A program made the translations under genes and the position numbers. Below the pieces are notes generated by a model, which was not told where the DNA came from, ran no database searches, and saw nothing but the letters and a program-made list of their open reading frames with translations. This document shows positions 9,595-47,884 of a stretch of DNA of 64,000 bases, piece by piece; position 1 is the stretch's first letter; every line of letters begins with the position of its first letter. This stretch comes from a phage: the sequence record PV357171.2; one strand, written 5' to 3'.

Positions 9595-10085
9595 TTGATT
9601 ATAATGGTCTAAAGACCATTTTTGGTGAAAAACTGCCAGAATCTCATATCTTCTTTGCTACGGTTGCTGCGCATAAATATGTTCCTAGCTATGCTTTTCT
9701 GCGTAGAGAACTAGGGCTTTCATCTGCGCATACTAACCGTAAAGTATGGAAGAAATTTGTAGAGGCTTATGGTGAAGCAGTTCCTCCGGCCCCACCGGCC
9801 CCACCATTAACTCTTTCTAAAGATTTAACTGCTAGCATGTCAGTTGAAGAGGGAGCAGCATTAACACTTTCTGTTACTGCAACTGGTGGTACTGGTCCAT
9901 ATACTTATGCATGGACTAAAGATGGTTCTCCTATTCCGGATGCTTCAGGAGCTACCTATACTAAACCTACAGCAGCAGCTGAGGATGCCGGCTCTTATAA
10001 AGTAACTGTAACAGATAGTAAGCAAGTAAGTAAGGATTCTACTGCATGTGCTGTGACAGTTAATCCTACTGTTCCTGGAGGCTAA
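9591..10085 (+). CDS. capsid decoration protein with C-terminal Ig-like domain (pb10-like)
   Basis: 164 aa; PPAPPAPP linker then Ig-like segment YTYAWTKDG...SYKVTVTD. Confidence 0.55.
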   Translation: MIDYNGLKTIFGEKLPESHIFFATVAAHKYVPSYAFLRRELGLSSAHTNRKVWKKFVEAYGEAVPPAPPAPPLTLSKDLTASMSVEEGAALTLSVTATGGTGPYTYAWTKDGSPIPDASGATYTKPTAAAEDAGSYKVTVTDSKQVSKDSTACAVTVNPTVPGG

Positions 10086-10088
10086 TAA

Positions 10089-10721
10089 ATGACACAAGCT
10101 GCTATTGACTATAACAAGTTAAAATCAGCACCCGTTCATTTAGATGCTTATATTAAATCTATTGATAGCGAATCCAAAGAGGGCGTTGTAAAAATCCGTG
10201 GATTCGCTAATACAATTAGTAAAGATCGCGCTGGTGATGTAATTCCTGCTTCTGCGTGGAAAACATCTAATGCACTTGCTAACTATATGAAAAACCCGAT
10301 TATTCTTTTCGGACACGATCATCGTCGTCCAATCGGCAAGTGTATTGATCTTAACCCTACTGAAATGGGTCTCGAAATCGAATGCGAGATCTATGAAAGT
10401 TCTGACCCGGCTATCTTTTCTCTAATTAAAAACGGTGTACTGAAAACTTTTAGTATCGGATTCCGCTGCCTAGATGCAGAGTGGGATGAAGCTACTGATA
10501 TATTTATTATTAAAGATTTAGAACTATACGAAGTTTCGGTAGTTTCTGTACCTTGTAATCAGGACTCAACGTTCAATCTCGCTAAGAGTATGAATGGTCA
10601 TGATTATACTGAATGGCGTAAATCTTTTACTGCAATAAGTTCTAAAGCTGTCCCAGCTCAAGAACGTAATCTTTCTGAACTAGAAAAACTTGCGATAGCT
10701 TTAGGCTACGTTAAAGAATAA
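10089..10721 (+). CDS. prohead maturation protease (HK97 family)
   Basis: 210 aa; position before major capsid gene; conserved His-containing segment FGHDHRRPIG. Confidence 0.7.
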   Translation: MTQAAIDYNKLKSAPVHLDAYIKSIDSESKEGVVKIRGFANTISKDRAGDVIPASAWKTSNALANYMKNPIILFGHDHRRPIGKCIDLNPTEMGLEIECEIYESSDPAIFSLIKNGVLKTFSIGFRCLDAEWDEATDIFIIKDLELYEVSVVSVPCNQDSTFNLAKSMNGHDYTEWRKSFTAISSKAVPAQERNLSELEKLAIALGYVKE

Positions 10722-10738
10722 CGGAGAATTATTTAAAA

Positions 10739-11296
10739 ATGACTATTGATATTAATAAGCTGAAAGAAGAACTTGGTCTGGGTGATCTGGCTAAATCTCT
10801 GGAAGGTCTGACCGCTGCTCAGAAAGCTCAGGAAGCTGAACGTATGCGTAAAGAGCAGGAAGAAAAAGAACTGGCTCGTATGAATGACTTGGTTTCTAAA
10901 GCAGTTGGCGAAGATCGTCAGAAACTGGAACAAGCTCTGGAACTGGTTAAGTCCCTGGATGAAAAATCTAAGAAGAGCGCAGAACTGTTTGCACAGACTG
11001 TAGAAAAGCAGCAGGAAACTATTGTTGGTCTCCAGGACGAAATCAAATCTCTGCTGGCAGCTCGTGAAGGGCGTTCCTTCGTCGGTGATAGTGTGGCTAA
11101 AGCACTGTACGGTACTCAAGAAAACTTTGAAGACGAAGTGGAGAAACTGGTTCTTCTGTCCTACGTGATGGAAAAAGGTGTATTTGATACCGAACATGGT
11201 CAGAGACACTTGAAAGCTGTAAACCAGTCTTCTTCTGTAGAAGTTTCTAGTGAAAGCTATGAAACTATTTTCTCCCAGCGTATCATCCGTGACTGA
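10739..11296 (+). CDS. major capsid protein, N-terminal scaffolding (delta) domain; frame terminates early
   Basis: Coiled-coil-rich 185 aa; followed in +1 frame by HK97-fold body. Confidence 0.7.
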   Translation: MTIDINKLKEELGLGDLAKSLEGLTAAQKAQEAERMRKEQEEKELARMNDLVSKAVGEDRQKLEQALELVKSLDEKSKKSAELFAQTVEKQQETIVGLQDEIKSLLAAREGRSFVGDSVAKALYGTQENFEDEVEKLVLLSYVMEKGVFDTEHGQRHLKAVNQSSSVEVSSESYETIFSQRIIRD

Positions 11297-11972
11297 GGTT
11301 AAAGGTGCTCTGACTGAAATCCACTTCAGTACTTACAAACTGGCTGCTAAGTCCTTCATTACTGATGAAACTGAAGAAGATGCAATCTTCTCCCTGCTGC
11401 CGCTGCTGCGTAAACGTCTGATTGAAGCACACGCTGTTTCTATCGAAGAAGCGTTTATGACTGGTGATGGTACTGGTAAACCTAAAGGTCTATTGACTCT
11501 TGCTAGCGAAGATGGTGCTAAAGTTACTACTGAAGCTAAAGCTGATGGTTCTGTTCTGGTAACTGCTAAGACTATCTCTAAACTGCGTCGTAAACTGGGC
11601 CGTCATGGTTTGAAACTGTCCAAACTGGTACTGATTGTATCTATGGATGCTTACTACGATCTGCTGGAAGATGAAGAATGGCAGGATGTTGCTCAAGTTG
11701 GTAATGATGCTGTTAAACTGCAGGGTCAGGTTGGTCGTATTTATGGTCTGCCGGTTGTAGTTTCTGAATACTTCCCAGCTAAAGCGGTTGATAAAGAGTT
11801 CGCAGTTATTGTTTATAAAGATAACTTCGTAATGCCACGTCAGCGTGCTGTTACTGTTGAACGTGAGCGTCAAGCTGGTAAACAGCGTGATGCATACTAC
11901 GTTACTCAGCGTGTTAACCTGCAACGTTACTTTAGTAATGGCGTTGTATCTGGTGCTTACGCTGCATCTTAA
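11250..11972 (+). CDS. major capsid protein, HK97-fold body (in +1 frame relative to delta domain)
   Basis: 240 aa; strong terminator downstream; continuation of capsid gene. Confidence 0.7.
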   Translation: MKAMKLFSPSVSSVTEVKGALTEIHFSTYKLAAKSFITDETEEDAIFSLLPLLRKRLIEAHAVSIEEAFMTGDGTGKPKGLLTLASEDGAKVTTEAKADGSVLVTAKTISKLRRKLGRHGLKLSKLVLIVSMDAYYDLLEDEEWQDVAQVGNDAVKLQGQVGRIYGLPVVVSEYFPAKAVDKEFAVIVYKDNFVMPRQRAVTVERERQAGKQRDAYYVTQRVNLQRYFSNGVVSGAYAAS

Positions 11973-11991
11973 TACAGGCTTTTCAGCCGAT

Positions 11992-12018
11992 AAGGAGAGC
12001 TTCGGCTCTCCTTTTTTA
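11992..12018 (+). terminator. rho-independent terminator after capsid gene (AAGGAGAGC-TTCG-GCTCTCCTT + T-tract)
   Basis: Perfect 9-bp stem, tetraloop, U-run. Confidence 0.8.
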
Positions 12019-12031
12019 TTGGGAAAAATAA

Positions 12032-12544
12032 ATGCAAATAATCACAGCTGAAGACTATAGATTATATGGCGGGTTAAAACGACCTGAACTAGAATCTGGA
12101 GTAGAGATGATGATTACTGCTGCCAATGCGCTGATTACTAGCCTTTTAGGTATGGATGATGCTGATGCGGTAGACCAGTTAATCAATACAAAACCTACTC
12201 GTAAAAAATACTTTTTAAGTTCTCCCTCGGCTACTTCAGTAACCAAAATGACTATTAACGACAAGGAGATAGATCCTGAACAGTATAAGTTGTATTCTGA
12301 TGGGGTTATACTTCTTAAATTTAACCCTCCAGAAGGTTATATGGACGTAGAATATACACAAGGTGGATTTAATCCAATTCCTGAAGATCTCAAACTTGCA
12401 GCATGTATGTTAGTAGATCATTGGCACAAACAGGATTATCGCCAAGCTAAAACAATTGGCGGAGAAACAGTTACTTTTAATAATACTAAGTCTGGTATTC
12501 CAGAGCATATTCGTACTATTATTGAAGTTTACAGGAGAGTATAA
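12032..12544 (+). CDS. head completion / head-tail adaptor protein (p144-like)
   Basis: 170 aa; synteny after capsid gene. Confidence 0.45.
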   Translation: MQIITAEDYRLYGGLKRPELESGVEMMITAANALITSLLGMDDADAVDQLINTKPTRKKYFLSSPSATSVTKMTINDKEIDPEQYKLYSDGVILLKFNPPEGYMDVEYTQGGFNPIPEDLKLAACMLVDHWHKQDYRQAKTIGGETVTFNNTKSGIPEHIRTIIEVYRRV

Positions 12545-13311
12545 TGTCTCTTTCTGATTTAGCTACACAAATTATTAAGGAGCAGCTAGATAATGTTGGG
12601 CGTTCCGAGAACAATAAGAATACTGTTGTATATTCTGTTGAAACAGGACTGAAAGATCCTACTAGAGATGGTACTGTTGCTCAGGTATCTTTTAAATTCT
12701 CAAAACCTGTATCCCAAGACCTCCTTAATGTTAGGACCGCTTCTATTCTAAAAGCAGTTTCTTCTAGCTTAGATCTAACAGGAGACTTAGGTGCTTTAGA
12801 AAGTCTTATTCAAGCAACCGCCGGTAAAAAATCCTCTGTAGGTAAAAAACGTTCTACTGGTAGAGTTCAAGTAAACTTTGGGGATCCTAGAGATGTAGAA
12901 GATGGATATTCTGGTGCAGTAACAGGTGCTTCTGGTCGTTTTGTATCTAATAGCAATATGAAGGTTATTCTGGAGTTGGTTGCTAAAGAATACTTAATAA
13001 AGGATATGAAAAAAGCAGGAGCTCCACTTAAATTTAGAACAGGTCGTTTTGCAAATTCTCTGAAAATTAAGGATGTTATGCTTAGAGATGCAGAGACTAG
13101 TAAAGGTGCTCCTGAACTAAACGTGACATATAAGTATATGGTACGTCCATATTCTGTATTTAATCCAGCAGTATCTACATATCGAAGATTATCTCTACGA
13201 CCTTACCCAGGCGCTAGAAACCCCCAAAAACTTATTGGTGAGGCTATAGCAAAAGCTGCAAGAGACCTGATTCACTCTAGATATAAAATCAAGGTTAATC
13301 AAGGAACCTAA
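12544..13311 (+). CDS. tail completion / neck protein (p143-like)
   Basis: 255 aa; synteny. Confidence 0.4.
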   Translation: MSLSDLATQIIKEQLDNVGRSENNKNTVVYSVETGLKDPTRDGTVAQVSFKFSKPVSQDLLNVRTASILKAVSSSLDLTGDLGALESLIQATAGKKSSVGKKRSTGRVQVNFGDPRDVEDGYSGAVTGASGRFVSNSNMKVILELVAKEYLIKDMKKAGAPLKFRTGRFANSLKIKDVMLRDAETSKGAPELNVTYKYMVRPYSVFNPAVSTYRRLSLRPYPGARNPQKLIGEAIAKAARDLIHSRYKIKVNQGT

Positions 13312-13314
13312 TAA

Positions 13315-13800
13315 ATGGATCATAGAACAAGTATTGCACAAGCTCTGGTTGACCGTATATCTAAACAGTTGGACGGTTCTCAACCCGACGAATATTTTAA
13401 TAACCTATATGGAAACGTTTCTCGTCAAACTTATAAATTTGAGGAAATACGAGAGTTTCCTTATGTGGCAGTTCATATCGGAACTGAAACTGGGCAGTAT
13501 CTTCCTTCGGGCCAACAGTGGATGTTTTTAGAACTTCCAATCCTGGTGTACGATAAAGAGAAAACAGACATTCAAGAGCAACTTGAAAAACTCGTAGCGG
13601 ATATAAAAACCGTTATTGACACAGGTGGAAATTTAGAATATACTGTTAGTAAACCTAATGGATCGACCTTCCCATGTGAGGCAACTGATATGATCATTAC
13701 ATCAGTTAGTACAGATGAGGGTCTACTGGCCCCATATGGTTTAGCAGAAATAAATGTAACAGTGAGGTATCAGCCTCCACGTAGGTCACTTCGCAGATAA
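13315..13800 (+). CDS. tail terminator protein (p142-like)
   Basis: 161 aa; immediately upstream of tail tube gene. Confidence 0.45.
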   Translation: MDHRTSIAQALVDRISKQLDGSQPDEYFNNLYGNVSRQTYKFEEIREFPYVAVHIGTETGQYLPSGQQWMFLELPILVYDKEKTDIQEQLEKLVADIKTVIDTGGNLEYTVSKPNGSTFPCEATDMIITSVSTDEGLLAPYGLAEINVTVRYQPPRRSLRR

Positions 13801-13826
13801 GTTACAGATTAGGAGAAAATAATTAA

Positions 13827-15224
13827 ATGTCTTTACAACTATTACGTAATACTCGAATCTTCGTGTCTACGGTTAAGACTGGTCATAATAAGACCAACAC
13901 GCAAGAGATTCTAGTTCAGGATGATATTTCTTGGGGTCAGGACAGTAACTCAACAGATATTACTGTTAATGAAGCTGGTCCGCGTCCAACTCGTGGTTCT
14001 AAACGTTTTAACGACTCTTTAAACGCGGCTGAGTGGAGTTTCTCTACTTATATCCTGCCATATAAAGATAAAACTACTAACAAACAGATTGTCCCTGACT
14101 ATATGTTATGGCATGCTCTTTCTAGTGGTAAAGCTCTTAACCTAGAAGGTGCTACAGGAGCACATAATAACGAAACCAATTTTATGGTTAACTTTAAAGA
14201 TAACGCGTACCACGAACTGGCAATGCTGCATATCTACATCCTGACTGACAAAGCATGGAGTTACATCGACTCTTGCCAGATCAACCAGGCAGAAGTTAAC
14301 GTTGATATTGAGGATATTGGTCGTGTAACTTGGTCAGGTAATGGTAACCAGCTTATTCCTTTGGATGAGCAACCATTTGACCCTGATACTGTAGGTATTG
14401 ATGATGAAACTTATATGACTATTCAGAGTTCTTATATCAAGAACAAGTTGACTATCCTGAAAATTAAGGATATGGATTCTGATAAGGCATATGATATCCC
14501 TATTACTGGGGGTACTTTCACCATTAATAACAATATTACGTACCTAACCCCGAATATTATGTCTCGTGTTAATATTCCAATTGGTTCTTTTACTGGTGCT
14601 TTTGAATTAACGGGTTCATTAACTGCTTATCTGAATGATAAATCTCTTGGTTCTATGGAGCTGTACAAAGATCTTATCAAGACTCTGAAGGTAGTTAACC
14701 GCTTCGAAATTGCTCTAGTACTTGGTGGTGAATACGATGAAGAACGTCCTGCTGCTATTCTGGTAGCTAAACAAGCACACGTTAATATTCCTACTATTGA
14801 AACTGATGATGTACTTGGTACTTCAGTAGAGTTTAAAGCTATTCCATCTGATCTGGATGCTGGTGATGAAGGTTACTTAGGCTTCTCTAGTAAATATACC
14901 AAAACAACTATTAATAACTTGATTGTTAATGGTGATGGTGCTACTAATGCTGTAACCGCAATTACTGTTAAATCTGCTGGTGATGCTACTACAGTAAACA
15001 ACTCGGCTACTCTTCAAATGAGTGTTGAAGTTACTCCTCCTTCCGCAAAGAATAAGGAAGTTACTTGGGCTATCACCGCCGGTGATGCAGCCACAATTGA
15101 TCCAGAATCTGGCCTATTAACTGCGGACACCACTAAAACTGGTGAAGTAACTGTAGAAGCTACTGCTAAAGATGGTTCTGGAGTTAAAGGTACTAAACAG
15201 ATTACTGTAGCAGCAGGTGGCTAA
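13827..15224 (+). CDS. tail tube protein with C-terminal Ig-like (Big_2-type) domain (pb6-like)
   Basis: 465 aa; C-terminal Ig-like segment; synteny. Confidence 0.7.
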   Translation: MSLQLLRNTRIFVSTVKTGHNKTNTQEILVQDDISWGQDSNSTDITVNEAGPRPTRGSKRFNDSLNAAEWSFSTYILPYKDKTTNKQIVPDYMLWHALSSGKALNLEGATGAHNNETNFMVNFKDNAYHELAMLHIYILTDKAWSYIDSCQINQAEVNVDIEDIGRVTWSGNGNQLIPLDEQPFDPDTVGIDDETYMTIQSSYIKNKLTILKIKDMDSDKAYDIPITGGTFTINNNITYLTPNIMSRVNIPIGSFTGAFELTGSLTAYLNDKSLGSMELYKDLIKTLKVVNRFEIALVLGGEYDEERPAAILVAKQAHVNIPTIETDDVLGTSVEFKAIPSDLDAGDEGYLGFSSKYTKTTINNLIVNGDGATNAVTAITVKSAGDATTVNNSATLQMSVEVTPPSAKNKEVTWAITAGDAATIDPESGLLTADTTKTGEVTVEATAKDGSGVKGTKQITVAAGG

Positions 15225-15228
15225 TTAA

Positions 15229-16128
15229 ATGTACTACTCTCTAATGAGAGAGTCAAAAGTTATAGTTGAGTATGATGGTAGGGCATTTCATTTTGATGCC
15301 CTATCAAACTATGATATACAGACTTCCTACGAGGAATTCAAGACTCTTCGTAGGACTGTTCATCGTAGAACTAACTATGCAGACTCTATTATAAATGCTC
15401 AAACCCCCTCTTCTATCTCTCTAGCAGTAAATTTCAGTAATACTCTTACTGAGGCTAACTTCTTTGAATGGTTAGGTTTTGATAGAAAAGGTAATACTTT
15501 CTTACTCCCGCTATATAGTAGTAATATTGAACCTATTATGTTCAATATCTATATAGTAAATAAAGATAATAACTGTGTATATTTTGAAAACTGTTATGTA
15601 TCTACAGTAGATTTTTCTTTAGATAAGAACATACCAATTCTTAATGTTGGTATTGAGTCTGGGAAATTCTCAGAAGTATCTACGTATAGAGAAGCAGCTT
15701 CTATTATACAGGGTGAAGTAATGTCTTACAGCCCAGTAATAGCTTCTACTAATGGCAGCATCTTACCCGGTCTTATTTCTGCCTCTTTATCTTTCCAGCA
15801 GCAGTGCTCCTGGAGAGAGGATAAGAGTGTTTTTGATATAAATAAAATTTATAATAATAAAAGAGCCTATGTAACTGAAATGAATGCTTCGGCAACCATT
15901 TCTCTGTACTACTTAAAACGTTTTGCAGGAGATATGGTTTATAATATAGAACCGGAGACAGATGTACCTTTAATGATAAGAAATAATAATATTTCTATAG
16001 ATTTTCCTTCAGCACGTATTACAAAACGCCTAGAGTTCTCAGATGTGTATAGAGTTGAGTGGGATATTATACCTATTGCTTCTTCAGACCCAGTGAGAAT
16101 AGATTTCTTTGGAGAAATTAAAAAATGA
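15229..16128 (+). CDS. tail tip collar protein (p140-like)
   Basis: 299 aa; synteny between tube and tape measure. Confidence 0.4.
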   Translation: MYYSLMRESKVIVEYDGRAFHFDALSNYDIQTSYEEFKTLRRTVHRRTNYADSIINAQTPSSISLAVNFSNTLTEANFFEWLGFDRKGNTFLLPLYSSNIEPIMFNIYIVNKDNNCVYFENCYVSTVDFSLDKNIPILNVGIESGKFSEVSTYREAASIIQGEVMSYSPVIASTNGSILPGLISASLSFQQQCSWREDKSVFDINKIYNNKRAYVTEMNASATISLYYLKRFAGDMVYNIEPETDVPLMIRNNNISIDFPSARITKRLEFSDVYRVEWDIIPIASSDPVRIDFFGEIKK

Positions 16129-16529
16129 TTAATTTAAAAGATATTACTCTTGATACTCGTACTATTACTCTTTCCTACCCAGGTATGCCGAACTTTAAAC
16201 TAGAACTTAACTATATGTCTCGTGCTACCTCTAAACGTGTTATTTCTTCTGCTAAACGCGATGAATGGGTTAATGGTACTTTGGTTCAGGTACAGGATGA
16301 TGATAAGTTCATTGAAGCCTTTGTTGACGCAGCTATTAAAGGTTGGACTGGTTTGACTGTAGGTGACGTTGAAAAACTGATGCTGATTGAAACAGACGCT
16401 GATCCTGCTACTGAAGTTCCATTTAGTCGTGATAATGCTGTAATGCTTATGCAGAACTCTGCTGCGTTTGATTCTTGGATCAACCAGACAGTGTTCCATT
16501 TAGACACTTTTCGTAGCTCAAAAGCGTAA
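16125..16529 (+). CDS. putative tail assembly chaperone (G-like)
   Basis: 134 aa immediately upstream of tape measure region; SD GGAG. Confidence 0.4.
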   Translation: MINLKDITLDTRTITLSYPGMPNFKLELNYMSRATSKRVISSAKRDEWVNGTLVQVQDDDKFIEAFVDAAIKGWTGLTVGDVEKLMLIETDADPATEVPFSRDNAVMLMQNSAAFDSWINQTVFHLDTFRSSKA

Positions 16530-16959
16530 AGAATTACTAGATGCTGTTGCTGACTTTGCTGATAAATGTATTAAAAGCTCAGCATCTAAAATGACTAAAC
16601 AACAATATTTAATACTTTGTGAATCAATGGGTATAGAACCTGATCCTAAGGCTATGCCTGTTGAACTTGAAGACTTTCCACCTATTGTAGCTATTAGTAT
16701 GAATATTTATAATAGTCTAGTTGACTGTTTCATACCTGGCGACTTTCCTATATTTATAGGTAAAGACAAGGCTGCTTTAGGTGTTTTATTCGATATTTAT
16801 GGGATTACTGATCCCATAGAAAAAGAATTTGTTCTACACATTATCAATATATTTGATTCTAAAGCTGTAGACGCTGCACGTAAACGTGCTGAGAAGCATA
16901 AGCCGCAAAACGGTAGAATACCTAACGTTAAGCCACATGCTAAATCTCGAGCACGGTAA
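16504..16959 (+). CDS. putative tail assembly chaperone extension (T-like), +1 frame; track ORF 16591..16959
   Basis: Frame open from 16504, overlaps end of upstream ORF by ~25 nt; no SD before ATG 16591. Confidence 0.35.
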   Translation, partial: TLFVAQKRKELLDAVADFADKCIKSSASKMTKQQYLILCESMGIEPDPKAMPVELEDFPPIVAISMNIYNSLVDCFIPGDFPIFIGKDKAALGVLFDIYGITDPIEKEFVLHIINIFDSKAVDAARKRAEKHKPQNGRIPNVKPHAKSRAR

Positions 16960-16994
16960 AAGTTTCCTCCAATGGGCGTTCCACGATGAGGCTT

Positions 16995-17027
16995 GGCTCT
17001 GGGTGATTTGCCCAGAGCCTTTTTTAT
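16995..17027 (+). terminator. stem-loop plus T-tract before tape measure gene
   Basis: GGCTCTGGG...CCCAGAGCC then TTTTTTATTGGGAAAAATAAA. Confidence 0.7.
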
Positions 17028-17042
17028 TGGGAAAAATAAAAT

Positions 17043-20000
17043 ATGACTGATAAGCTAATACGAGAATTACTAATAGACGTTAAACAGAAGGGGGCAACCC
17101 GTACTGCAAAGTCTATTGAAAACGTATCTGATGCATTAGAGAACGCTGCTGCTGCTTCTGAACTAACAAATGAACAGTTAGGTAAAATGCCCAAAACTCT
17201 ATACTCCATTGAGAGGGCAGCAGATAGAGCAGCGAAAAGTCTTACTAAAATGCAAGCTAGCAGAGGTATGCTTAGTATTACTAAATCTATTAATGATATA
17301 GGAGCTAAGTTAGATGATCTCGCTATTACAATGATTGAAGTAGCAGATAAATTAGAAATCGGATTTGATGGAGTTTCTAGATCTGTTAAAACAATGGGCA
17401 ATGATGTTGCAGCTGCAACAGAGAAAGTTCAAGATAGGCTGTATGATACTAATAGAGCCTTAGGTGGTACAGCTAGAGGTTTTAATGATACTACTGGTGC
17501 CGCTGGTAGAGCTTCTAGAGCTATCGGTAATACCTCTGGCTCAGCACGCGGTGCAACTCGTGATTTCGCGGCAATGGCTAAGATAGGGGGTGGTTTACCT
17601 ATCCTGTATGCTGCAATTGCATCTAATATATTTGTTCTTCAGTCCGCTTTTGAGGGCCTAAAAGTAGGTGATCAATTAAACAGACTGGAACATTTTGGCA
17701 CTATCGTTGGGACTATAACGGGTACACCAGTACAGACGTTAGCTCTGGCACTACAAAACGCTACTAACGGTGCTGTATCCTTTGAAGAAGCTATGAGACA
17801 AGCGTCTTCTGCTTCAGCTTATGGATTTGATAGTAAACAATTAGAACAGTTCGGACTAGTAGCCCGTCGTGCTGCTGCTGTTCTTGGTGTTGACATGACC
17901 GACGCACTTAACCGTGTAATTAAAGGCGTATCTAAGCAAGAAATAGAACTTCTAGACGAACTTGGTGTTACTATTCGCCTTAACGATGCGTATGCAAATT
18001 ATGTTAAACAGCTAAATGCTACCAGTACAGGCATTAAATATACTGTAGATAGCCTGACTACCTACCAGAGACAACAAGCATATGCAAATGAAGTTATAGC
18101 AGAATCTACTAGACGTTTCGGATACCTAGATGATGCTCTTAAGTCAACTTCTTGGGAGCTATTTGCTGCTAATGCTAACTCTGCCCTAAGAAGCCTACAA
18201 CAAAGCGCAGCAACATACTTAACCCCTGTTGTAGACACCATCAATGCTTTCTTATATCAAACTAAATCTTCTCAGATGAGGATTTCCGCAATGGCACGCA
18301 GTGCCTCTGCTAAAACCACTCCTACTGAAAATGTTACGGCTCTCATAGAAAACGCTGTAGGTGCACAAGAAGATCTAGATACTTACCTTAAAGAAAGTGA
18401 TGCTCGTGTTAAGAAAGCTCAAGAGATTAAACAGCAGTTAGATGATCTCAAGGCAAAACAAGCTGTTACTGCTCCAGTAGCTAACGCACTTACTGCTGTG
18501 GGCATTGGAGGCGATGAAAGTAATAAATTAGTAGTACAACTTACTAATGAACTGGCTCGTCAAAACCAAGAAATAGCAGAACGCGCTAAAACCGAAAAAG
18601 TTCTCAAACAAGCAGTGGAAGATACTGGGCAAGCCTTACTGCGTAATAGTAATCTAGCTAAGCAATTAGGAGCCAATATGCAGTATGCTGCCACTGCTAT
18701 TCCTGGAGAGACCGGGGTATTTAAGATTGATCCTAATAATCTTAAAGCGGCTGCAGAGGTACAGAAGAACTATGACCAGCTAAAGAAAAGCTCTAGTGAT
18801 ACTGCAAATAATATAAAAATGGCAGCTACTAACATTACCACTGCCAAAAAAGCATCAGGTGACTTAGTTAGCATTATAAAAGCAGTAGGAGATACTGCTA
18901 AGGTAACAGGGCAAAATACAGATACTCTAGTTAAAAATCTGAATCTAGGCTTTGAAAATCTAGATCAAATGAAGGCTGCGCAGAAAGGTCTATCAGAATA
19001 TGTAACTGCTATGGATAAGAATGAGCAGAATGCACTGGAAGTAGCTAAACGTAAAGACGAGGTTTATAACCAGACTAAAGACAAAGCTAAAGCGGAGGCA
19101 GCAGCTAGAGAGGTGCTACTACGTCAGCAACAGGAACAGCTCACAGCAGCAAAAGCACTACTGGCTGTTAATCCAAACGATCCAGAGGCTCTAAAGCAGG
19201 TAGCTAAGATAGAAACAGAGATTCTTAATACTAAAGCTCAGGGATTTGAGAACGCTAAGAAAACTAAAGATCTGACAGATAAAATTCTTGGTGTAGATCG
19301 TGAGATAGCTCTCCTGAATGACCGCACTATGACGAGTACTCAGTATCGTCTAGCACAATTAAGGCTAGAGCTACAATTAGAGCAGGAAAAAACGGAATTA
19401 TATTCTAAACAAGCGGATGGCCAAGCTAAAGCAGAACAGTCTAGACGTGCCCAAGCACAAATAAGTAGAGAACTGTGGGAAGCAGAGAAACAAGCTACTG
19501 CCTCGCATGTGTCAGCTCTCATGGATGCCTTAGAAGTTAACCAAACTCAGAGAAATGTCACTGGTCAATCCCAGATTCTTACTGAAAGGTTATCCATTCT
19601 GCAACAACAGCTGGAGTTGTCTAAAGGTAATACTGAAGAAGAAATTAAATATCGTAATGAGATTTATAAAACTTCAGCAGCCTTAGAACAGCTTAAAAAG
19701 CAAAGAGAGAGTCAGATGCAGCAACAGGTAGGATCTTCATTAGGTGCTGTGTACACTCCTACAACTGGTCTATCTGGGGCAGATAAAGATTTTGCTGATA
19801 TGCAGAATAAGATGGCTTCTTATGACCAGGCTATTTCTAAGCTGTCTGAGTTAAATTCCGAAGCAACAGCTGTAGGTCAAAGCCTTGGTAATTTAACTAA
19901 TGCTATGATTCATTTCTCACGGGGATCTCTAGATACTACGTCTATGATTGCGGCAGGTATGCAAGCTGTATCTTCCGTAATTCAGTATAGTACTAGCCAG

Positions 20001-20702
20001 CAGGTAAGTGCTATTGATGCAGCTATTGCAGCAGAGCAAAAACGTGATGGTAAATCCGAGGAGTCTAAAGCTAAACTCAAGAAACTGGAAGCGGAAAAGG
20101 TTAAGATCCAGCAGGATGCAGCTAAGAAGCAAATCATTATTCAGACGGCAGTAGCAGTAATGCAAGCGGCAACAGCTGTACCATACCCGTTCTCTATTCC
20201 TTTGATGGTGGCGGCAGGTTTGGCAGGTGCGTTGTCTCTTGCTCAAGCATCTTCTGCATCGAGTATGTCAAGTATTGCTGATTCTGGAGCGGATACAACA
20301 AGTTATTTAACCTTAGGAGAGCGTCAAAAGAATATAGATGTGTCCATGTCTGCTAATGCAGGTGAACTATCTTATATCCGAGGCGATAAAGGAATAGGCG
20401 GTGCTAACTCTTTCGTTCCTCGTGCTGAGGGTGGTAATATGTACCCAGGGGTTAGTTACCAAATGGGTGAACATGGTACAGAAGTAGTTACCCCTATGGT
20501 TCCTATGAAAGCTACACCTAATGATGAGCTAAAAACCTCATCTAACTCAACTTCAGGAAGACCTATCATCTTGAATATTAGTGCTATGGATGCTGCAAGT
20601 TTCAGAGAGTTTGCTTCTAGTAATAGTAGTGCTCTAAGAGACGCAGTAGAATTAGCTCTGAATGAGAACGGTGCTAGTCTGAAAACATTAGGAAATTCTT
20701 AA
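17043..20702 (+). CDS. tail tape measure protein (pb2-like)
   Basis: 1219 aa, long coiled-coil/Ala-rich, C-terminal hydrophobic segment and peptidase-like end. Confidence 0.85.
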   Translation: MTDKLIRELLIDVKQKGATRTAKSIENVSDALENAAAASELTNEQLGKMPKTLYSIERAADRAAKSLTKMQASRGMLSITKSINDIGAKLDDLAITMIEVADKLEIGFDGVSRSVKTMGNDVAAATEKVQDRLYDTNRALGGTARGFNDTTGAAGRASRAIGNTSGSARGATRDFAAMAKIGGGLPILYAAIASNIFVLQSAFEGLKVGDQLNRLEHFGTIVGTITGTPVQTLALALQNATNGAVSFEEAMRQASSASAYGFDSKQLEQFGLVARRAAAVLGVDMTDALNRVIKGVSKQEIELLDELGVTIRLNDAYANYVKQLNATSTGIKYTVDSLTTYQRQQAYANEVIAESTRRFGYLDDALKSTSWELFAANANSALRSLQQSAATYLTPVVDTINAFLYQTKSSQMRISAMARSASAKTTPTENVTALIENAVGAQEDLDTYLKESDARVKKAQEIKQQLDDLKAKQAVTAPVANALTAVGIGGDESNKLVVQLTNELARQNQEIAERAKTEKVLKQAVEDTGQALLRNSNLAKQLGANMQYAATAIPGETGVFKIDPNNLKAAAEVQKNYDQLKKSSSDTANNIKMAATNITTAKKASGDLVSIIKAVGDTAKVTGQNTDTLVKNLNLGFENLDQMKAAQKGLSEYVTAMDKNEQNALEVAKRKDEVYNQTKDKAKAEAAAREVLLRQQQEQLTAAKALLAVNPNDPEALKQVAKIETEILNTKAQGFENAKKTKDLTDKILGVDREIALLNDRTMTSTQYRLAQLRLELQLEQEKTELYSKQADGQAKAEQSRRAQAQISRELWEAEKQATASHVSALMDALEVNQTQRNVTGQSQILTERLSILQQQLELSKGNTEEEIKYRNEIYKTSAALEQLKKQRESQMQQQVGSSLGAVYTPTTGLSGADKDFADMQNKMASYDQAISKLSELNSEATAVGQSLGNLTNAMIHFSRGSLDTTSMIAAGMQAVSSVIQYSTSQQVSAIDAAIAAEQKRDGKSEESKAKLKKLEAEKVKIQQDAAKKQIIIQTAVAVMQAATAVPYPFSIPLMVAAGLAGALSLAQASSASSMSSIADSGADTTSYLTLGERQKNIDVSMSANAGELSYIRGDKGIGGANSFVPRAEGGNMYPGVSYQMGEHGTEVVTPMVPMKATPNDELKTSSNSTSGRPIILNISAMDAASFREFASSNSSALRDAVELALNENGASLKTLGNS

Positions 20703-20709
20703 AACTGGA

Positions 20710-20737
20710 GGAGGACTTTGAGTCCTCCTTTTCTTTA
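20710..20737 (+). terminator. rho-independent terminator after tape measure gene
   Basis: GGAGGACT-TTG-AGTCCTCC then T-tract. Confidence 0.75.
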
Positions 20738-20755
20738 TGGAAAAATAAAAATTTC

Positions 20756-20784
20756 TTGATAAAATTTTCTAATACTATTATAAT
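20756..20784 (+). promoter_or_regulatory. sigma70 consensus-like promoter (TTGATA-17-TATAAT) upstream of distal tail protein gene
   Basis: Hexamers and spacing read from sequence; followed by strong RBS AAAGAGGAGAAA. Confidence 0.55.
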
Positions 20785-20811
20785 ATTGTTATTAAAGAGG
20801 AGAAATTAACT

Positions 20812-21426
20812 ATGAGATTACCAGACCCATACACGAATCCAGAACTTTCAGGCTTAGGATTCGAAAGTGTTAACCTGATTGATAATGACCCAGTAATTCG
20901 TGATGAGTTACCAAATGGTAAAGTTAACGAAGTTAAGGTATCTGCTCAATACTGGGGTATAAATATTTCTTATCCAGAATTATTTCCAGATGAATATAGT
21001 GTTCTAGATGCTTTTATTCTAGAATACAAAAGGACTGGTGGTTATATAGATGTTATATTACCCCAATACGAAGCTTTTAGAGTTAGAGGTAATACTAGTC
21101 TAGTAAATATACCTGCTGGACAGAAGGGTTCTAATATAACTATGGATACAAAAGGGCTTCTTACAGGTACTCCAAAACCGGGGGATCTATTTAAGCTGTC
21201 TAGCCACCCAAAAGTATATAAAATAACATCATTTAACAAATCAGGTAATACATGGTCTATAAACTTATACCCTGATTTATTTATAACTACTACTGGAGCG
21301 GAGAAGCCAGTATTCAATGGAATACTATTTAGAACAAAACTCATGAATGGTGATGCTTTTGGATCTACACTAAATAATAACGGAACATACTCCAACATCT
21401 CATTAAATTTACGGGAAAGTCTATGA
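20812..21426 (+). CDS. distal tail protein (pb9-like)
   Basis: 204 aa between tape measure and baseplate hub. Confidence 0.6.
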   Translation: MRLPDPYTNPELSGLGFESVNLIDNDPVIRDELPNGKVNEVKVSAQYWGINISYPELFPDEYSVLDAFILEYKRTGGYIDVILPQYEAFRVRGNTSLVNIPAGQKGSNITMDTKGLLTGTPKPGDLFKLSSHPKVYKITSFNKSGNTWSINLYPDLFITTTGAEKPVFNGILFRTKLMNGDAFGSTLNNNGTYSNISLNLRESL

Positions 21427-24272
21427 AAAAAATATTAGATAGTGCTAGAAACTACTTAAAAAATAATAGCAGAATAAAAACTGCTAGTCTAATTTCTCTA
21501 GAATTACCCGGCTCTACTGGTACTAGTACTGCTTTTATTTACTTAACTGACTATTTTAGAGATGTACTATATAATGGTATTTTGTACCAGGCCGGTAAAG
21601 TTAAGTCTATTAGCACACATAAACAAAATAGAGATTTATCTATTGGCAGCCTATCTTTTACTATTACAGGTACAGCGCAGGATGAAGTACTGAAATTAGT
21701 GCAGAATGGTGTGTCTTTTTTAGATAGATTAGTATCAATTCACCAAGCAATTATTACAGAAGATGGTTCTATTTTACCTGTAGACCCAGACACAAATGGG
21801 CCTTTATTATACTTTAGAGGTAGAATTACTGGTGGAGGTATTAAGGATAATATTAGCACTTCGGGAGTTGGAACCTCCACAATTACTTGGAATTGTTCTA
21901 ACCAATTCTATGATTTTGATAGGGTTAATGGTAGATTTACTGATGATGCTTCTCATAGAGGGCTTGAAGTTGTAGCAGGGCAATTAGTTCCATCTAACGG
22001 GGCTAAAAGACTTGAGTATCAAGAAGATTATGGGTTCTTTCATGCCAATAAAAGTATCTCTATTCTAGCAAAATATCAGGTACAGGAAGAAAGATACAAG
22101 CTAAAGTCTAAGAAAAAGCTATTTGGCCTATCTAGAAGTTATAGTCTTAAAAAGTATTATGAGACTGTTACTAAAGAAGTAGATATAGATTTTAACCTTG
22201 CTGCTAAGTATCTACCAGTAGTTTATGGTGTACAGAAAATACCGGGAATACCTATTTTTGCGGATACGGAATTACACAATCCTAATATAGTTTACGTAGT
22301 ATATGCTTTTGCTGAAGGAGAGATAGACGGTTTTCTTGACTTTTCCTTTGGGGATAACCCTATGATTTGTATGGACTCTAATGATAGCTCTGCTAGAACC
22401 TGTTTCGGTGTTAAAAAAGTAGCCGGAGACACCATGCAAAGAATAGCATCAGGAACACCTTCTAGTAGTCCTTCCGTGCATGGGCAGGAGTATAAGTATA
22501 ATGATGGGAATGGTGACATAAGAATTTGGACGTATCATGGAAAACCTGACCAAACGGCTTCTGAAGTACTAGTAGATATAGCTAAAGAACGTGGGTTCTA
22601 CCTTCAGAATATGAATGGCAATGGACCGGAGTACTGGGATGCTAGGTATAAACTACTAGATACTGCATACGCAGTGGTGCGCTTCACTATTAATGAAAAT
22701 AGGACTGAGATTCCTGAAGTTAGTGCTGAAATTCAAGGTAAAAAAGTAAAAGTCTATCATTCTGATGGTAGAGTAACTGCTAATAGTACTAGTTTAAATG
22801 GTATTTGGCAAACACTTGATTACTTAACCTCTGATAGATATGGCGCTAATATTACCATTGATCAGTTCCCCCTTCAGCAATTAATACAGGAAGCAGATAT
22901 TTTAGATATTATAGATGAATCCTATCAGGTATCTTGGCAGCCATATTGGAGATACGTTGGGTGGACTGATCCACTAGCAGAAAATAGACAAATAGTACAA
23001 ATGAATACTATTCTGGATACATCTGAATCAGTATTTAAAAATGTGCAAGGTTTGTTAGAGTCCTATGGTGGGGCTATTAACAATTTATCTGGCCAGTATA
23101 GGGTTACTGTAGAAAAATACTCTAATACTCCATTAGAGATTAATTTTCTAGACACTTACGGTGATTTGGAGCTATCTGATACTACCGGTAGAAATAAATT
23201 CAACTCAGTTCAAGCATCTATTGTGGATCCCGCCCTTAGCTGGAAAACTAATTCCATTACCTTCTATAATTCCAAGTATAAGGAACAGGACAAAAACCTG
23301 GATAAAAAACTACAATTATCTTTTGCAAATATAACTAACTACTATACTGCTAGAAGTTTTGCAGACAGAGAACTTAAGAAATCTAGGTATTCTAGAACCC
23401 TCTCATTCTCTTTACCATATCAATTCATTGGTATTGAGCCTAACGATGCTATTGCATTTACATACGACCGTTACGGATGGGATAAGAAGTACTTTTTAGT
23501 AGATGAAGTAGAAAACTCTAGAGAAGGAAAGATAAATGTTACTCTACAGGAATATGGTGAAGATGTATTTATCAACTCTGATCAAGTAGATAATAGTGGT
23601 AATGATATACCAGATATTAGTAACAACGTTCTTCCTCCTAGGGATTTTAAATATACTCCTACACCCGGTGGTTTAGTTGGTTCTATAGGAAAAAATGGTG
23701 AGTTATCTTGGCTTCCAAGCTTAACTAATAACGTAGTTTATTATTCTATCGTACATTCCGGTCATGCTGAGCCTTATACTGTGCAGCAACTAGAAACAAA
23801 TCCCAATGAACGCATGATCCAAGAGATAATTGGAGAGCCTGCAGGCTTAGCGATATTTGAAATAAGAGCTGTGGATATAAACGGTAGAAGAAGTTCTCCA
23901 GTAACATTATCTATAGAACTTAACTCTGCTAAAAACCTAAGTGTAGTATCTAATTTTAGGGTAACTAATACGGCTTCCGGGGATGTAACTGAATTTGTAG
24001 GCCCAGATGTAAAACTAGCTTGGGATAGGATACCGGAAGAAGATATAATAGAAAGTATATTCTATACTCTGGAAATCTATGATTCCCAGAATAGAATGCT
24101 AAGAAGTGTACGTATTGAAAATCAGTATACTTATGACTATTTATTAATGTATAATAAGGCAGATTTTGCTCTTCATAACAGTGATGCTCTAGGAATCAAT
24201 AGAAAACTATATTTTCGTATTAGAGCAGAAGGAGATGATGGGGAACAGTCTGTGGAGTGGGCATCCATTTAA
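21423..24272 (+). CDS. baseplate hub protein (pb3-like)
   Basis: 949 aa; synteny. Confidence 0.7.
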   Translation: MKKILDSARNYLKNNSRIKTASLISLELPGSTGTSTAFIYLTDYFRDVLYNGILYQAGKVKSISTHKQNRDLSIGSLSFTITGTAQDEVLKLVQNGVSFLDRLVSIHQAIITEDGSILPVDPDTNGPLLYFRGRITGGGIKDNISTSGVGTSTITWNCSNQFYDFDRVNGRFTDDASHRGLEVVAGQLVPSNGAKRLEYQEDYGFFHANKSISILAKYQVQEERYKLKSKKKLFGLSRSYSLKKYYETVTKEVDIDFNLAAKYLPVVYGVQKIPGIPIFADTELHNPNIVYVVYAFAEGEIDGFLDFSFGDNPMICMDSNDSSARTCFGVKKVAGDTMQRIASGTPSSSPSVHGQEYKYNDGNGDIRIWTYHGKPDQTASEVLVDIAKERGFYLQNMNGNGPEYWDARYKLLDTAYAVVRFTINENRTEIPEVSAEIQGKKVKVYHSDGRVTANSTSLNGIWQTLDYLTSDRYGANITIDQFPLQQLIQEADILDIIDESYQVSWQPYWRYVGWTDPLAENRQIVQMNTILDTSESVFKNVQGLLESYGGAINNLSGQYRVTVEKYSNTPLEINFLDTYGDLELSDTTGRNKFNSVQASIVDPALSWKTNSITFYNSKYKEQDKNLDKKLQLSFANITNYYTARSFADRELKKSRYSRTLSFSLPYQFIGIEPNDAIAFTYDRYGWDKKYFLVDEVENSREGKINVTLQEYGEDVFINSDQVDNSGNDIPDISNNVLPPRDFKYTPTPGGLVGSIGKNGELSWLPSLTNNVVYYSIVHSGHAEPYTVQQLETNPNERMIQEIIGEPAGLAIFEIRAVDINGRRSSPVTLSIELNSAKNLSVVSNFRVTNTASGDVTEFVGPDVKLAWDRIPEEDIIESIFYTLEIYDSQNRMLRSVRIENQYTYDYLLMYNKADFALHNSDALGINRKLYFRIRAEGDDGEQSVEWASI

Positions 24273-47575: not shown

Positions 47576-47884
47576 CTAGGCATTCTTGGCTTTGAGTTCT
47601 TCAGCTCGTTTCTGTACTTCATGTAAAACCTCAGATTCGCTAAGAATCTGTGTAAACGCATAGAAAAGCTGTGATGTTGTTTCTAGAGTGTAAGGAAAAG
47701 AGAAGCCAGATTTCGTTGGAAACCATTCATCATTAATATCAAGAAGCCAGTAACGAATACCCATGTATAGATTCCCACGAAATTCAGATACTGTTAATCT
47801 TACTTGTTCTCCCTCCTTCTCCCAAAGTATGATGGACTGGTCATCAACGTGTCCTTCATAGTTTTGATTTACCTGTTCGCTCAT
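47576..47884 (-). CDS. hypothetical early protein (102 aa)
   Basis: ORF track. Confidence 0.4.
   Translation of the reverse strand: MSEQVNQNYEGHVDDQSIILWEKEGEQVRLTVSEFRGNLYMGIRYWLLDINDEWFPTKSGFSFPYTLETTSQLFYAFTQILSESEVLHEVQKRAEELKAKNA

Follow-up and report, generated by a model that had tools for sequence, protein, structure and literature searches.

Terminator-like hairpins joined to putative weak ribosome-binding sites in the late structural operon of a T5-like phage

Attenuating terminators located inside operons have been described for phages as well as for Escherichia coli. Phages T7 and T3 have T-phi, which lies downstream of gene 10, after the major capsid gene, and attenuates transcription. 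E. coli has an attenuator between rplL and rpoB, as well as terminator T1 between rpsU and dnaG, the latter in combination with a poor dnaG ribosome-binding site (RBS). The late genes of phage T5 are served by strong sigma-70 promoters, and UP elements are given in Figure S5 of the paper in which T5 late promoters were validated by primer extension (PMC7472727). In the literature on T5 late transcription we found no term-seq, transcriptome or transcription start site map. The public T5 record (AY587007) has terminators annotated at the three places considered here, and the record of phage Sugarland shows a terminator plus RBS at the first two and, at the third, a terminator with the RBS further downstream.

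Here we describe these three junctions in a stretch of 64,000 nucleotides of phage DNA (sequence record PV357171.2), referred to as the window. Two of them, sites 1 and 2, are in our reading leaky intrinsic terminators joined to the weak RBS of the next gene, which, judged from sequence features and comparison with relatives, we consider probable (roughly 0.8). Site 3 is apart from these: there, a predicted terminator is followed by what appears to be a strong sigma-70 promoter.

Operon context and layout of the junctions

The best match to bases 11000-18000 is Escherichia phage phiAPCEc03 (93.6%), and more than 500 T5-like phages (Demerecviridae) match. The DNA comes from a T5-like phage of the Demerecviridae, whose late structural operon takes up about 3.9-31.1 kb of the window on the + strand. 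The operon starts with the genes for receptor-binding protein, terminase, portal, protease, major capsid and head completion, continues with tail completion, tail terminator, tail tube, chaperones and tape measure (pb2), and proceeds with distal tail protein (pb9), pb3 and onwards. Site 1 separates the major capsid gene from the head completion gene, and site 2 separates the tail tube/chaperone block from the tape measure gene. Junctions were compared in 28 close relatives from IMG/VR and in six GenBank genomes of other genera; more junctions were collected at 67 loci by means of a capsid protein alignment and at 44 loci by means of a distal tail protein alignment.

All features of the three sites are on the + strand. 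At site 1 the major capsid gene stops at 11970-11972. Between this stop and the terminator lies a small hairpin, GGCT-TTTC-AGCC (11977..11988), and a GGC-loop-GCC hairpin is found at the same position in Klebsiella, Proteus and Providencia phages. The hairpin of putative terminator 1 (11992..12013) has the core GGAGAGC-UUCG-GCUCUCC (11994-12011) and is followed by TTTTTTATTGGGAAAAATAA and then by ATG at 12032. This connecting stretch consists of the U-tract TTTTTTATT (12012..12020), which is the first half of a repeated 21-mer discussed below, and of a degenerate Shine-Dalgarno (SD) sequence GGGA (12021-12024) with the A-rich spacer AAAATAA (together 12021..12031), assigned by anti-SD pairing and homology. 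An in-frame TAA is present within the spacer (12029-12031).

The head completion gene (12032..12544) encodes 170 aa, as do PDB chains 8hqo_R and 9ilp_a ('head completion protein'), which begin with MQIITAEDY. The N-terminus (..IIT.EEY..) is kept as protein in genera with diverged DNA, and among 27 relatives the third codon positions are the most variable sites just past 12032. ATG 12032 is the true head completion start, and in view of this evidence ORF137 of AY587007 (144 aa, from an internal ATG) is truncated.

At site 2 the ORF of the tail assembly chaperone stops at 16957-16959. The hairpin of putative terminator 2 (16995..17019), GGCUCUGGG-loop-CCCAGAGCC, with arms as read GGCTCTGGG...CCCAGAGCC, is the top-ranked match of a terminator scan. 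It is followed by TTTTTTATTGGGAAAAATAAAAT and then by ATG at 17043, the sequence in between (17020..17042) being composed of the same U-tract TTTTTTATT (17020-17028), GGGA (17029-17032) and an A-rich spacer (17033-17042). ATG 17043 is the genuine start of the tape measure gene (17043..20702; pb2-like, 1219 aa), the N-terminus of which, MTDKLIRELL, is conserved across genera.

The hairpins of sites 1, 2 and 3 start 22, 36 and 5 nt past the respective stop codons. Their stems have 9-11 pairs, 5-7 of which are GC pairs, with a U-tract directly 3' and predicted energies of -14.5, -19.1 and -15.5 kcal/mol, and they account for three of the top four terminator-like sites that the terminator scan gave for 5-25 kb. 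They carry every sequence feature of intrinsic (Rho-independent) terminators and are hence predicted to act as such.

The longest exact string common to sites 1 and 2 is the 23-mer CCTTTTTTATTGGGAAAAATAAA, at 12010-12032 and 17018-17040, with in both copies a GC-rich hairpin directly 5' and an ATG directly 3'. The terminator-distal sequence behind both terminators reads GGGAAAAATAAA. An earlier note on this DNA had reported an identical string after both hairpins with the ATG directly behind, and had regarded it as more than a chance repeat; both statements are borne out. The string is there to be read, with the 21-mer occurring exactly twice in the window, and chance is not a credible source: 100 shuffles gave no copy of the 21-mer, even with up to three mismatches allowed. 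The shorter GGAAAAATAA has three copies in the 64 kb, one at each of sites 1, 2 and 3, and each time on the + strand. Base composition gives an estimate of about 0.1 exact copies expected by chance for the 11-mer GGAAAAATAAA, and this tail is absent from the other terminator-like sites of the window.

A fourth junction with a hairpin, a U-rich tract, GGGA, 7 nt and an ATG lies on the opposite strand, among the early genes (47924-47884). Packing a terminator against the next RBS thus looks like a general habit of this genome.

Conservation of hairpins, leader and tails

At the capsid/head-completion junction a GC-rich hairpin plus U-tract follows the stop codon in 20 of the 22 distinct lineages, and the distance from hairpin to ATG is 16-20 nt in 17 of the 22. 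Four enteric-phage genera share an identical 18-nt core in hairpin 1, with only about 70% identity in their coding DNA, and relatives L013 and L014 carry a compensatory change from G-C to A-U in this hairpin. Relatives from Vibrio and Aeromonas have GC-rich hairpins of unrelated sequence at the position of terminator 1, and TTTTTTATT or a close variant stands behind hairpin 1 in nearly all family members. Three relatives have a gene for a 199-aa endonuclease between the capsid stop and hairpin 1, each with its own extra hairpin; in none of the three is the run of hairpin, tail and ATG interrupted. At site 2 the stem of terminator 2 (GCTCTGGG/CCCAGAGC) is conserved in phages as far apart as those of E. 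coli and Vibrio. The consensus fold has 11 predicted pairs, nine of them inside the hairpin, and four of the 11 show compensatory changes.

Between the chaperone stop and terminator 2 lies a deeply conserved non-coding leader, TTTCCTCCAATGGGCGTTCCACGATGAGGCTT (16963-16994, +). A 1-nt indel among close relatives marks it as non-coding. Its core, TCCTC-N(2-5)-GGGC(R)TTCCACG, i.e. TCCTC..GGGCRTTCCACG, is shared by T5-like, Klebsiella, Proteus, Providencia and Vibrio (Thalassa) phages, is slightly changed in phi3 and L190 and is degenerate in L191. A pattern scan of IMG/VR gave real matches only at the same locus in Demerecviridae, the others being GC-rich chance matches. The leader has no match in Rfam 15, and a permissive Rfam 15 search of 10000-23000 gave one chance-level miRNA match only (E = 0.62). 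Base pairing of the leader with the arms of the terminator or with the RBS, as an antiterminator or anti-SD, was considered and rejected as unsupported, since neither the duplex energies nor the registers agree among six genera. The identity of the hairpin 1 core and the conservation of the leader appear to exceed the sequence constraint that a generic terminator needs, and the leader is the one place in this region where something new may be hidden.

The tails themselves are under purifying selection. Nucleotide diversity among 27 relatives is 0.26 for third and 0.044 for second codon positions, as against 0.015 and 0.018 for the intergenic regions of sites 1 and 2. The values for other intergenic regions of the operon that carry an RBS are 0 and 0.016 in the same relatives; hence the tails are constrained, yet no more than those regions. 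The variants that do occur are confined to single sites. ATTATTAGG (L003 and L010), GG instead of GGG (L013 and L014) and a run of 13 T (L018) are seen at site 1 only, and variants of spacer length at site 2 only, where relatives read ...AAATG, ...AAAACATG or ...AAAATATG. Concerted evolution of the two copies was therefore rejected: variants arise at single sites, independently.

These variants bear on the idea that recombination rather than function keeps the copies identical, either by gene conversion or because the sites are targets of homing endonucleases with co-conversion. Homing endonuclease genes are indeed found in or beside both sites in several relatives. However, ATTATTAGG in L003/L010 and GG in L013/L014 have remained at site 1 only, and the layout is kept in Vibrio and Aeromonas phages despite unrelated sequence. 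The few variants also suggest that each tail follows its flanking genes rather than the other tail, and we regard maintenance by recombination as extremely improbable.

Phage T5 shows that the repeated 21-mer is not one indivisible signal, since in T5 a homing-endonuclease gene of about 0.8 kb is located between the site-2 U-tract (…CCTTTTTTATT) and the ATG of pb2, which overlaps the stop codon of the inserted gene. In our reading the repeated 21-23-mer is a U-tract plus a weak RBS. As for the latter part, the earlier note had described the two start codons as lacking an SD and had proposed unconventional translation initiation as one option. Neither is supported: a putative weak SD, GGGA, precedes both start codons (-4.2 kcal/mol against the anti-SD) and aligns with canonical SDs of relatives, and with an SD-like G-run present and no promoter placed such that a transcript would start at the ATG, SD-independent initiation finds no footing. 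Most genes of the operon have values of -6 to -11.6 kcal/mol. The distance from GGG(A) to ATG is 7-8 nt at site 1 and a suboptimal 10-11 nt at site 2 of the window; it is 7-8 nt at site 2 of Epseptimavirus-like relatives.

The position of the site-1 GGG is taken by GGAGG, GGAG, AAGGAG, GAGG or GGGAG in other genera, as exemplified by the junctions of phi3 (TTTTTTATTGGAGGTAATAAAATG), L141 (TTTTTATTGGAGGTAGCCAATG) and L135 (TTTTTTGTAAGGAGTTTTTATG). Outside the group of T5, Sugarland, Proteus and Providencia phages the G-run is GGAG, GGAGG, AAGGAG or GAGG, with -5.6 to -10.6 kcal/mol. Counterparts of GGGA at site 2 are AGGTG in Proteus phages, AGGAG in phi3, GGAG in Thalassa and GAGG in L190. It is this positional homology with canonical SDs that identifies GGG(A) as a degenerate SD and AAAATAA as the spacer between SD and ATG. 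An AU hairpin, UUUAUU-GGGAAA-AAUAAA with the SD in its loop, was also considered and rejected; its predicted energy is only -1.5 to -3 kcal/mol and complementarity of a U-tract and an A-tract is trivial.

The exact 23-mer at two sites, with tails that do not vary among 27 relatives, could also point to an operator: the 21-23-mer, perhaps together with the site-2 leader, would bind a trans-acting factor of phage or host that jointly governs read-through or translation of the two low-copy genes, such as a translational repressor, an antitermination factor or a protein of the Hfq/CsrA type that binds (ARN)n or GGA. Tails of the same genome tend to be alike elsewhere too (ATTTGGAG / ATTTGAGG in L190 and ATTGGGAAAAATAA / ATTGGAAAAATATA in a Providencia phage), a conserved element adjoins terminator 2, and GGA would be exposed in the loop of the possible AU hairpin. 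That hairpin is, however, weak (-1.5 to -3 kcal/mol), and the tails are not conserved more strongly than the remaining RBS regions. The search of the genome and of related phages that the earlier note had suggested recovered the tail in close genera; further out only the layout is kept, which speaks against an operator. In addition, T5 is viable with the latter half of the motif missing from its site 2, a candidate factor is not known and the data are explained without one. We consider an operator quite improbable. If it were true, the sequence of AAAAATAAA, beyond its A+U content, would matter for expression. Similarly, we give little credence to the 23-mer and the leader at 16963-16994 being the cis part of a dedicated system in which a phage or host factor controls read-through and/or translation; the proportions of virion components would then be under active regulation and not fixed.

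A predicted terminator and promoter behind the tape measure gene

At site 3 the tape measure gene stops at 20700-20702 and is followed by putative terminator 3, a hairpin (20707-20731) with the U-tract TTTTCTTTAT (together 20707..20738). A hairpin plus U-tract follows the tape measure gene in all lineages examined. The sequence behind hairpin 3 reads TTTTCTTTATGGAAAAATAAAAA / TTTTCTTTATGGAAAAATAAAAATTTC. According to its position relative to TTGATA, GGAAAAATAAAAATTTC (20739..20755) is an A-tract directly upstream of a -35 box; the A-tract proper, 20741-20751, covers about -46 to -40, where a proximal UP element would lie. The predicted sigma-70 late promoter itself, TTGATA-17 nt-TATAAT (20756..20784), has 11 of 12 consensus matches, and a strong SD, GAGGAG (20797-20802), precedes the ATG of the distal tail protein at 20812. 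This promoter and its RBS are probably the classical PG25 promoter and the source of 'RBSII' in pDS/pQE vectors. The T5 record has the site-3 promoter entered as putative late promoter T5P39. Every genus examined shows a terminator and then a sigma-70 promoter at site 3, with a differing A/T-rich tract upstream.

The close variant of the repeated string that the earlier note had listed behind the third hairpin is present, as GGAAAAATAA occurs there behind hairpin 20707-20731, but it does not represent the same class of junction, since a promoter follows and the SD is strong. Why the site-3 tail GGAAAAATAAA resembles those of sites 1 and 2 is not accounted for by function, the downstream parts there being different.

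Since GGAAAAATAAA at site 3 sits upstream of a real-looking promoter, and AY587007 has 'putative late promoter T5P40' across site 1 and an ORF137 that begins at an internal ATG, sites 1 and 2 could be thought to hold late promoters as well, with the A-rich stretch as UP element and with genes that start at internal codons. A scan for sigma-70-like -35/-10 pairs with at least 9 of 12 matches found none on the + strand in 11980-12450 or near 17043. The 25 codons past ATG 12032 are kept as protein, with variation at third positions, the PDB chains represent the 170-aa form and the N-terminus of the tape measure protein is conserved from ATG 17043, all of which argue against internal starts. A promoter at these sites is very improbable and largely refuted.

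Proposed partial termination and comparison with known systems

A leaky terminator joined to a weak RBS would work as follows at sites 1 and 2. The GC-rich hairpin with its U-tract UUUUUUAUU would stop part of late transcription after a gene that is needed in bulk, i.e. the major capsid gene at site 1 and the tail tube and chaperone genes at site 2. The mRNA for head completion and tape measure proteins would then stem solely from polymerases that read through the terminator, and would be translated from the degenerate SD (GGGA) with its A-rich spacer. Ribosomal protein S1 binds U-rich and A-rich sequence and thereby supports S1-dependent binding of the 30S subunit, and the U-rich and A-rich flanks may aid initiation in this way. 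Together, leaky terminator and weak ribosome site would result in a low stoichiometry of the downstream products, of which there are few per virion. In T5-like phages the tails of the two sites would be identical because both junctions lie close to one optimum and change very slowly.

Among the options of the earlier note it is the attenuating terminator that agrees with these data: the features of a terminator are in place and, since essential virion genes lie 18-24 nt behind the hairpins with no promoter of their own in between, we infer that termination is partial.

The ratio of products could in principle also be set by differential decay, with the hairpins acting as stabilisers of RNA 3' ends and landmarks for processing, and the AU-rich tail as an RNase E site at which a stable upstream mRNA would be cut from an unstable downstream one. 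An AU-rich single strand beside a stable hairpin is the usual context for RNase E, and UUUAUUGGGAAAAAUAAA, AU-rich and single-stranded beside a stable UUCG-capped hairpin, fits this; the explanation agrees with all conservation data. It leaves aside the U-tract straight behind the GC-rich stem, a signature of termination that processing does not need, and we consider decay as the main cause quite improbable. RNase E processing is compatible with termination and the two are not mutually exclusive.

Leaky terminators with weak ribosome sites show how T5-like phages could set the stoichiometry of capsid, connector and tape measure proteins. For annotation, the analysis corrects where the head completion gene starts and speaks against the 'putative late promoter' at site 1. 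The junctions may be useful for engineering of T5-like phages or insertion of payloads; natural homing endonuclease genes already occupy them.

The terminators are already annotated in the public T5 and Sugarland records, and the arrangement is real, functional and ordinary, with no new mechanism. These records have the same three positions, and T5 sites 1 and 3 are nearly identical to those of the window; the repeated 21-mer is unmentioned. The promoter over site 1 and the truncated head completion gene of the T5 record are both unsupported by the analysis of the window. As compared with the T5 sigma-70 promoters with UP-like regions (PMC7472727), site 3 is alike in having TTGATA-17-TATAAT and an A-tract, whereas sites 1 and 2 have no promoter.

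With T-phi of T7 and T3 the T5-like junctions share a hairpin and U-tract after the most abundant structural gene, with read-through that feeds essential genes of lower copy number. They differ in that a phage polymerase transcribes there, whereas host RNA polymerase transcribes the T5-like operon, in that the T5-like RBS starts right after the U-tract, and in that the device occurs twice per operon, with read-through deduced from layout. The E. coli attenuators are alike in that partial termination and a weak RBS lower the output of the downstream cistron, as would be the case at sites 1 and 2; unlike these, the T5-like case concerns a phage late operon and a tighter spacing of 18-24 nt from hairpin to ATG.

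Conserved sequence and overlapping chaperone ORFs upstream of terminator 2

Terminator 2, the hairpin at 16995-17019 that separates the tail assembly chaperone ORFs from the tape measure gene pb2, is adjoined on its upstream side by a deeply conserved non-coding element (16963-16994). Its core, TCCTC..GGGCRTTCCACG, is preserved in phages of hosts ranging from E. coli to Vibrio, and the sequence of the terminator stem is likewise unusually well conserved. The element had no match in Rfam, and its occurrences in IMG/VR were confined to this locus.

The two chaperone ORFs themselves (16125..16529 and 16504..16959) have a 25-nt overlap in the +1 frame. This overlap, together with the lack of an SD before the second ORF and the 3-nt periodicity of variation among relatives in the apparent gap at 16530-16590, suggests that the two are fused by a G/GT-like frameshift near TCA AAA GCG TAA.

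Homing endonucleases and gene starts in the T5 record

The junctions of sites 1 and 2, which precede the head completion gene and pb2 respectively, are landing sites for homing-endonuclease genes. In T5 (AY587007) such a gene lies at 15257-16054, between the site-2 U-tract and pb2; its annotated CDS start falls within the terminator loop and has probably been mis-called. In three relatives (L010, 1789-2388; also L013 and L014) an endonuclease gene, accompanied by an extra hairpin of its own, lies after the capsid stop and ahead of terminator 1, the hairpin of site 1.

The T5 record also gives the head completion protein (ORF137, 10361-10795) as 144 aa, starting from an internal ATG, and lays the 'putative late promoter T5P40' over the true 5' end of the gene. 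The 170-aa form is the one backed by PDB chains and by conservation across the family.

A split major capsid gene

The major capsid gene is present as two ORFs in different frames, 10739..11296 and 11250..11972, with the break at about 11293-11295. Direct alignment with T5 and L017 showed that some 143-144 nt of these two relatives are absent from the window, and in the relatives listed among the matches the span is likewise about 137-142 nt longer than that of the window. The split could stem from faulty assembly, from a defect in the genome or from editing of the sequence.

Further hairpins, junctions and promoter-like sites

A small hairpin, GGCT-TTTC-AGCC (11977-11988), immediately precedes terminator 1, and a GGC-loop-GCC hairpin occupies the equivalent position in the Klebsiella, Proteus and Providencia phages compared. 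The layout of sites 1 and 2 recurs at a fourth junction on the minus strand of the early region (47924-47884), where the hairpin AGCCCC-TATAT-GGGGCT is followed by a U-rich tract, GGGA, 7 nt and the ATG of ORF 47576..47884.

Within gene 13315..13800 lies a strong sigma-70-like site (13616-13644; TTGACA-17-TATACT, 11/12 matches), about 180 nt upstream of the tail tube gene (13827), which may be an internal late promoter raising tail tube expression. Behind terminator 3, the hairpin following the tape measure gene, the promoter and RBS at 20756-20814 (…TTGATAAAATTTTCTAATACTATTATAAT…ATTAAAGAGGAGAAATTAACTATG) probably match the classical T5 PG25 promoter and the RBSII of the pDS/pQE expression vectors.
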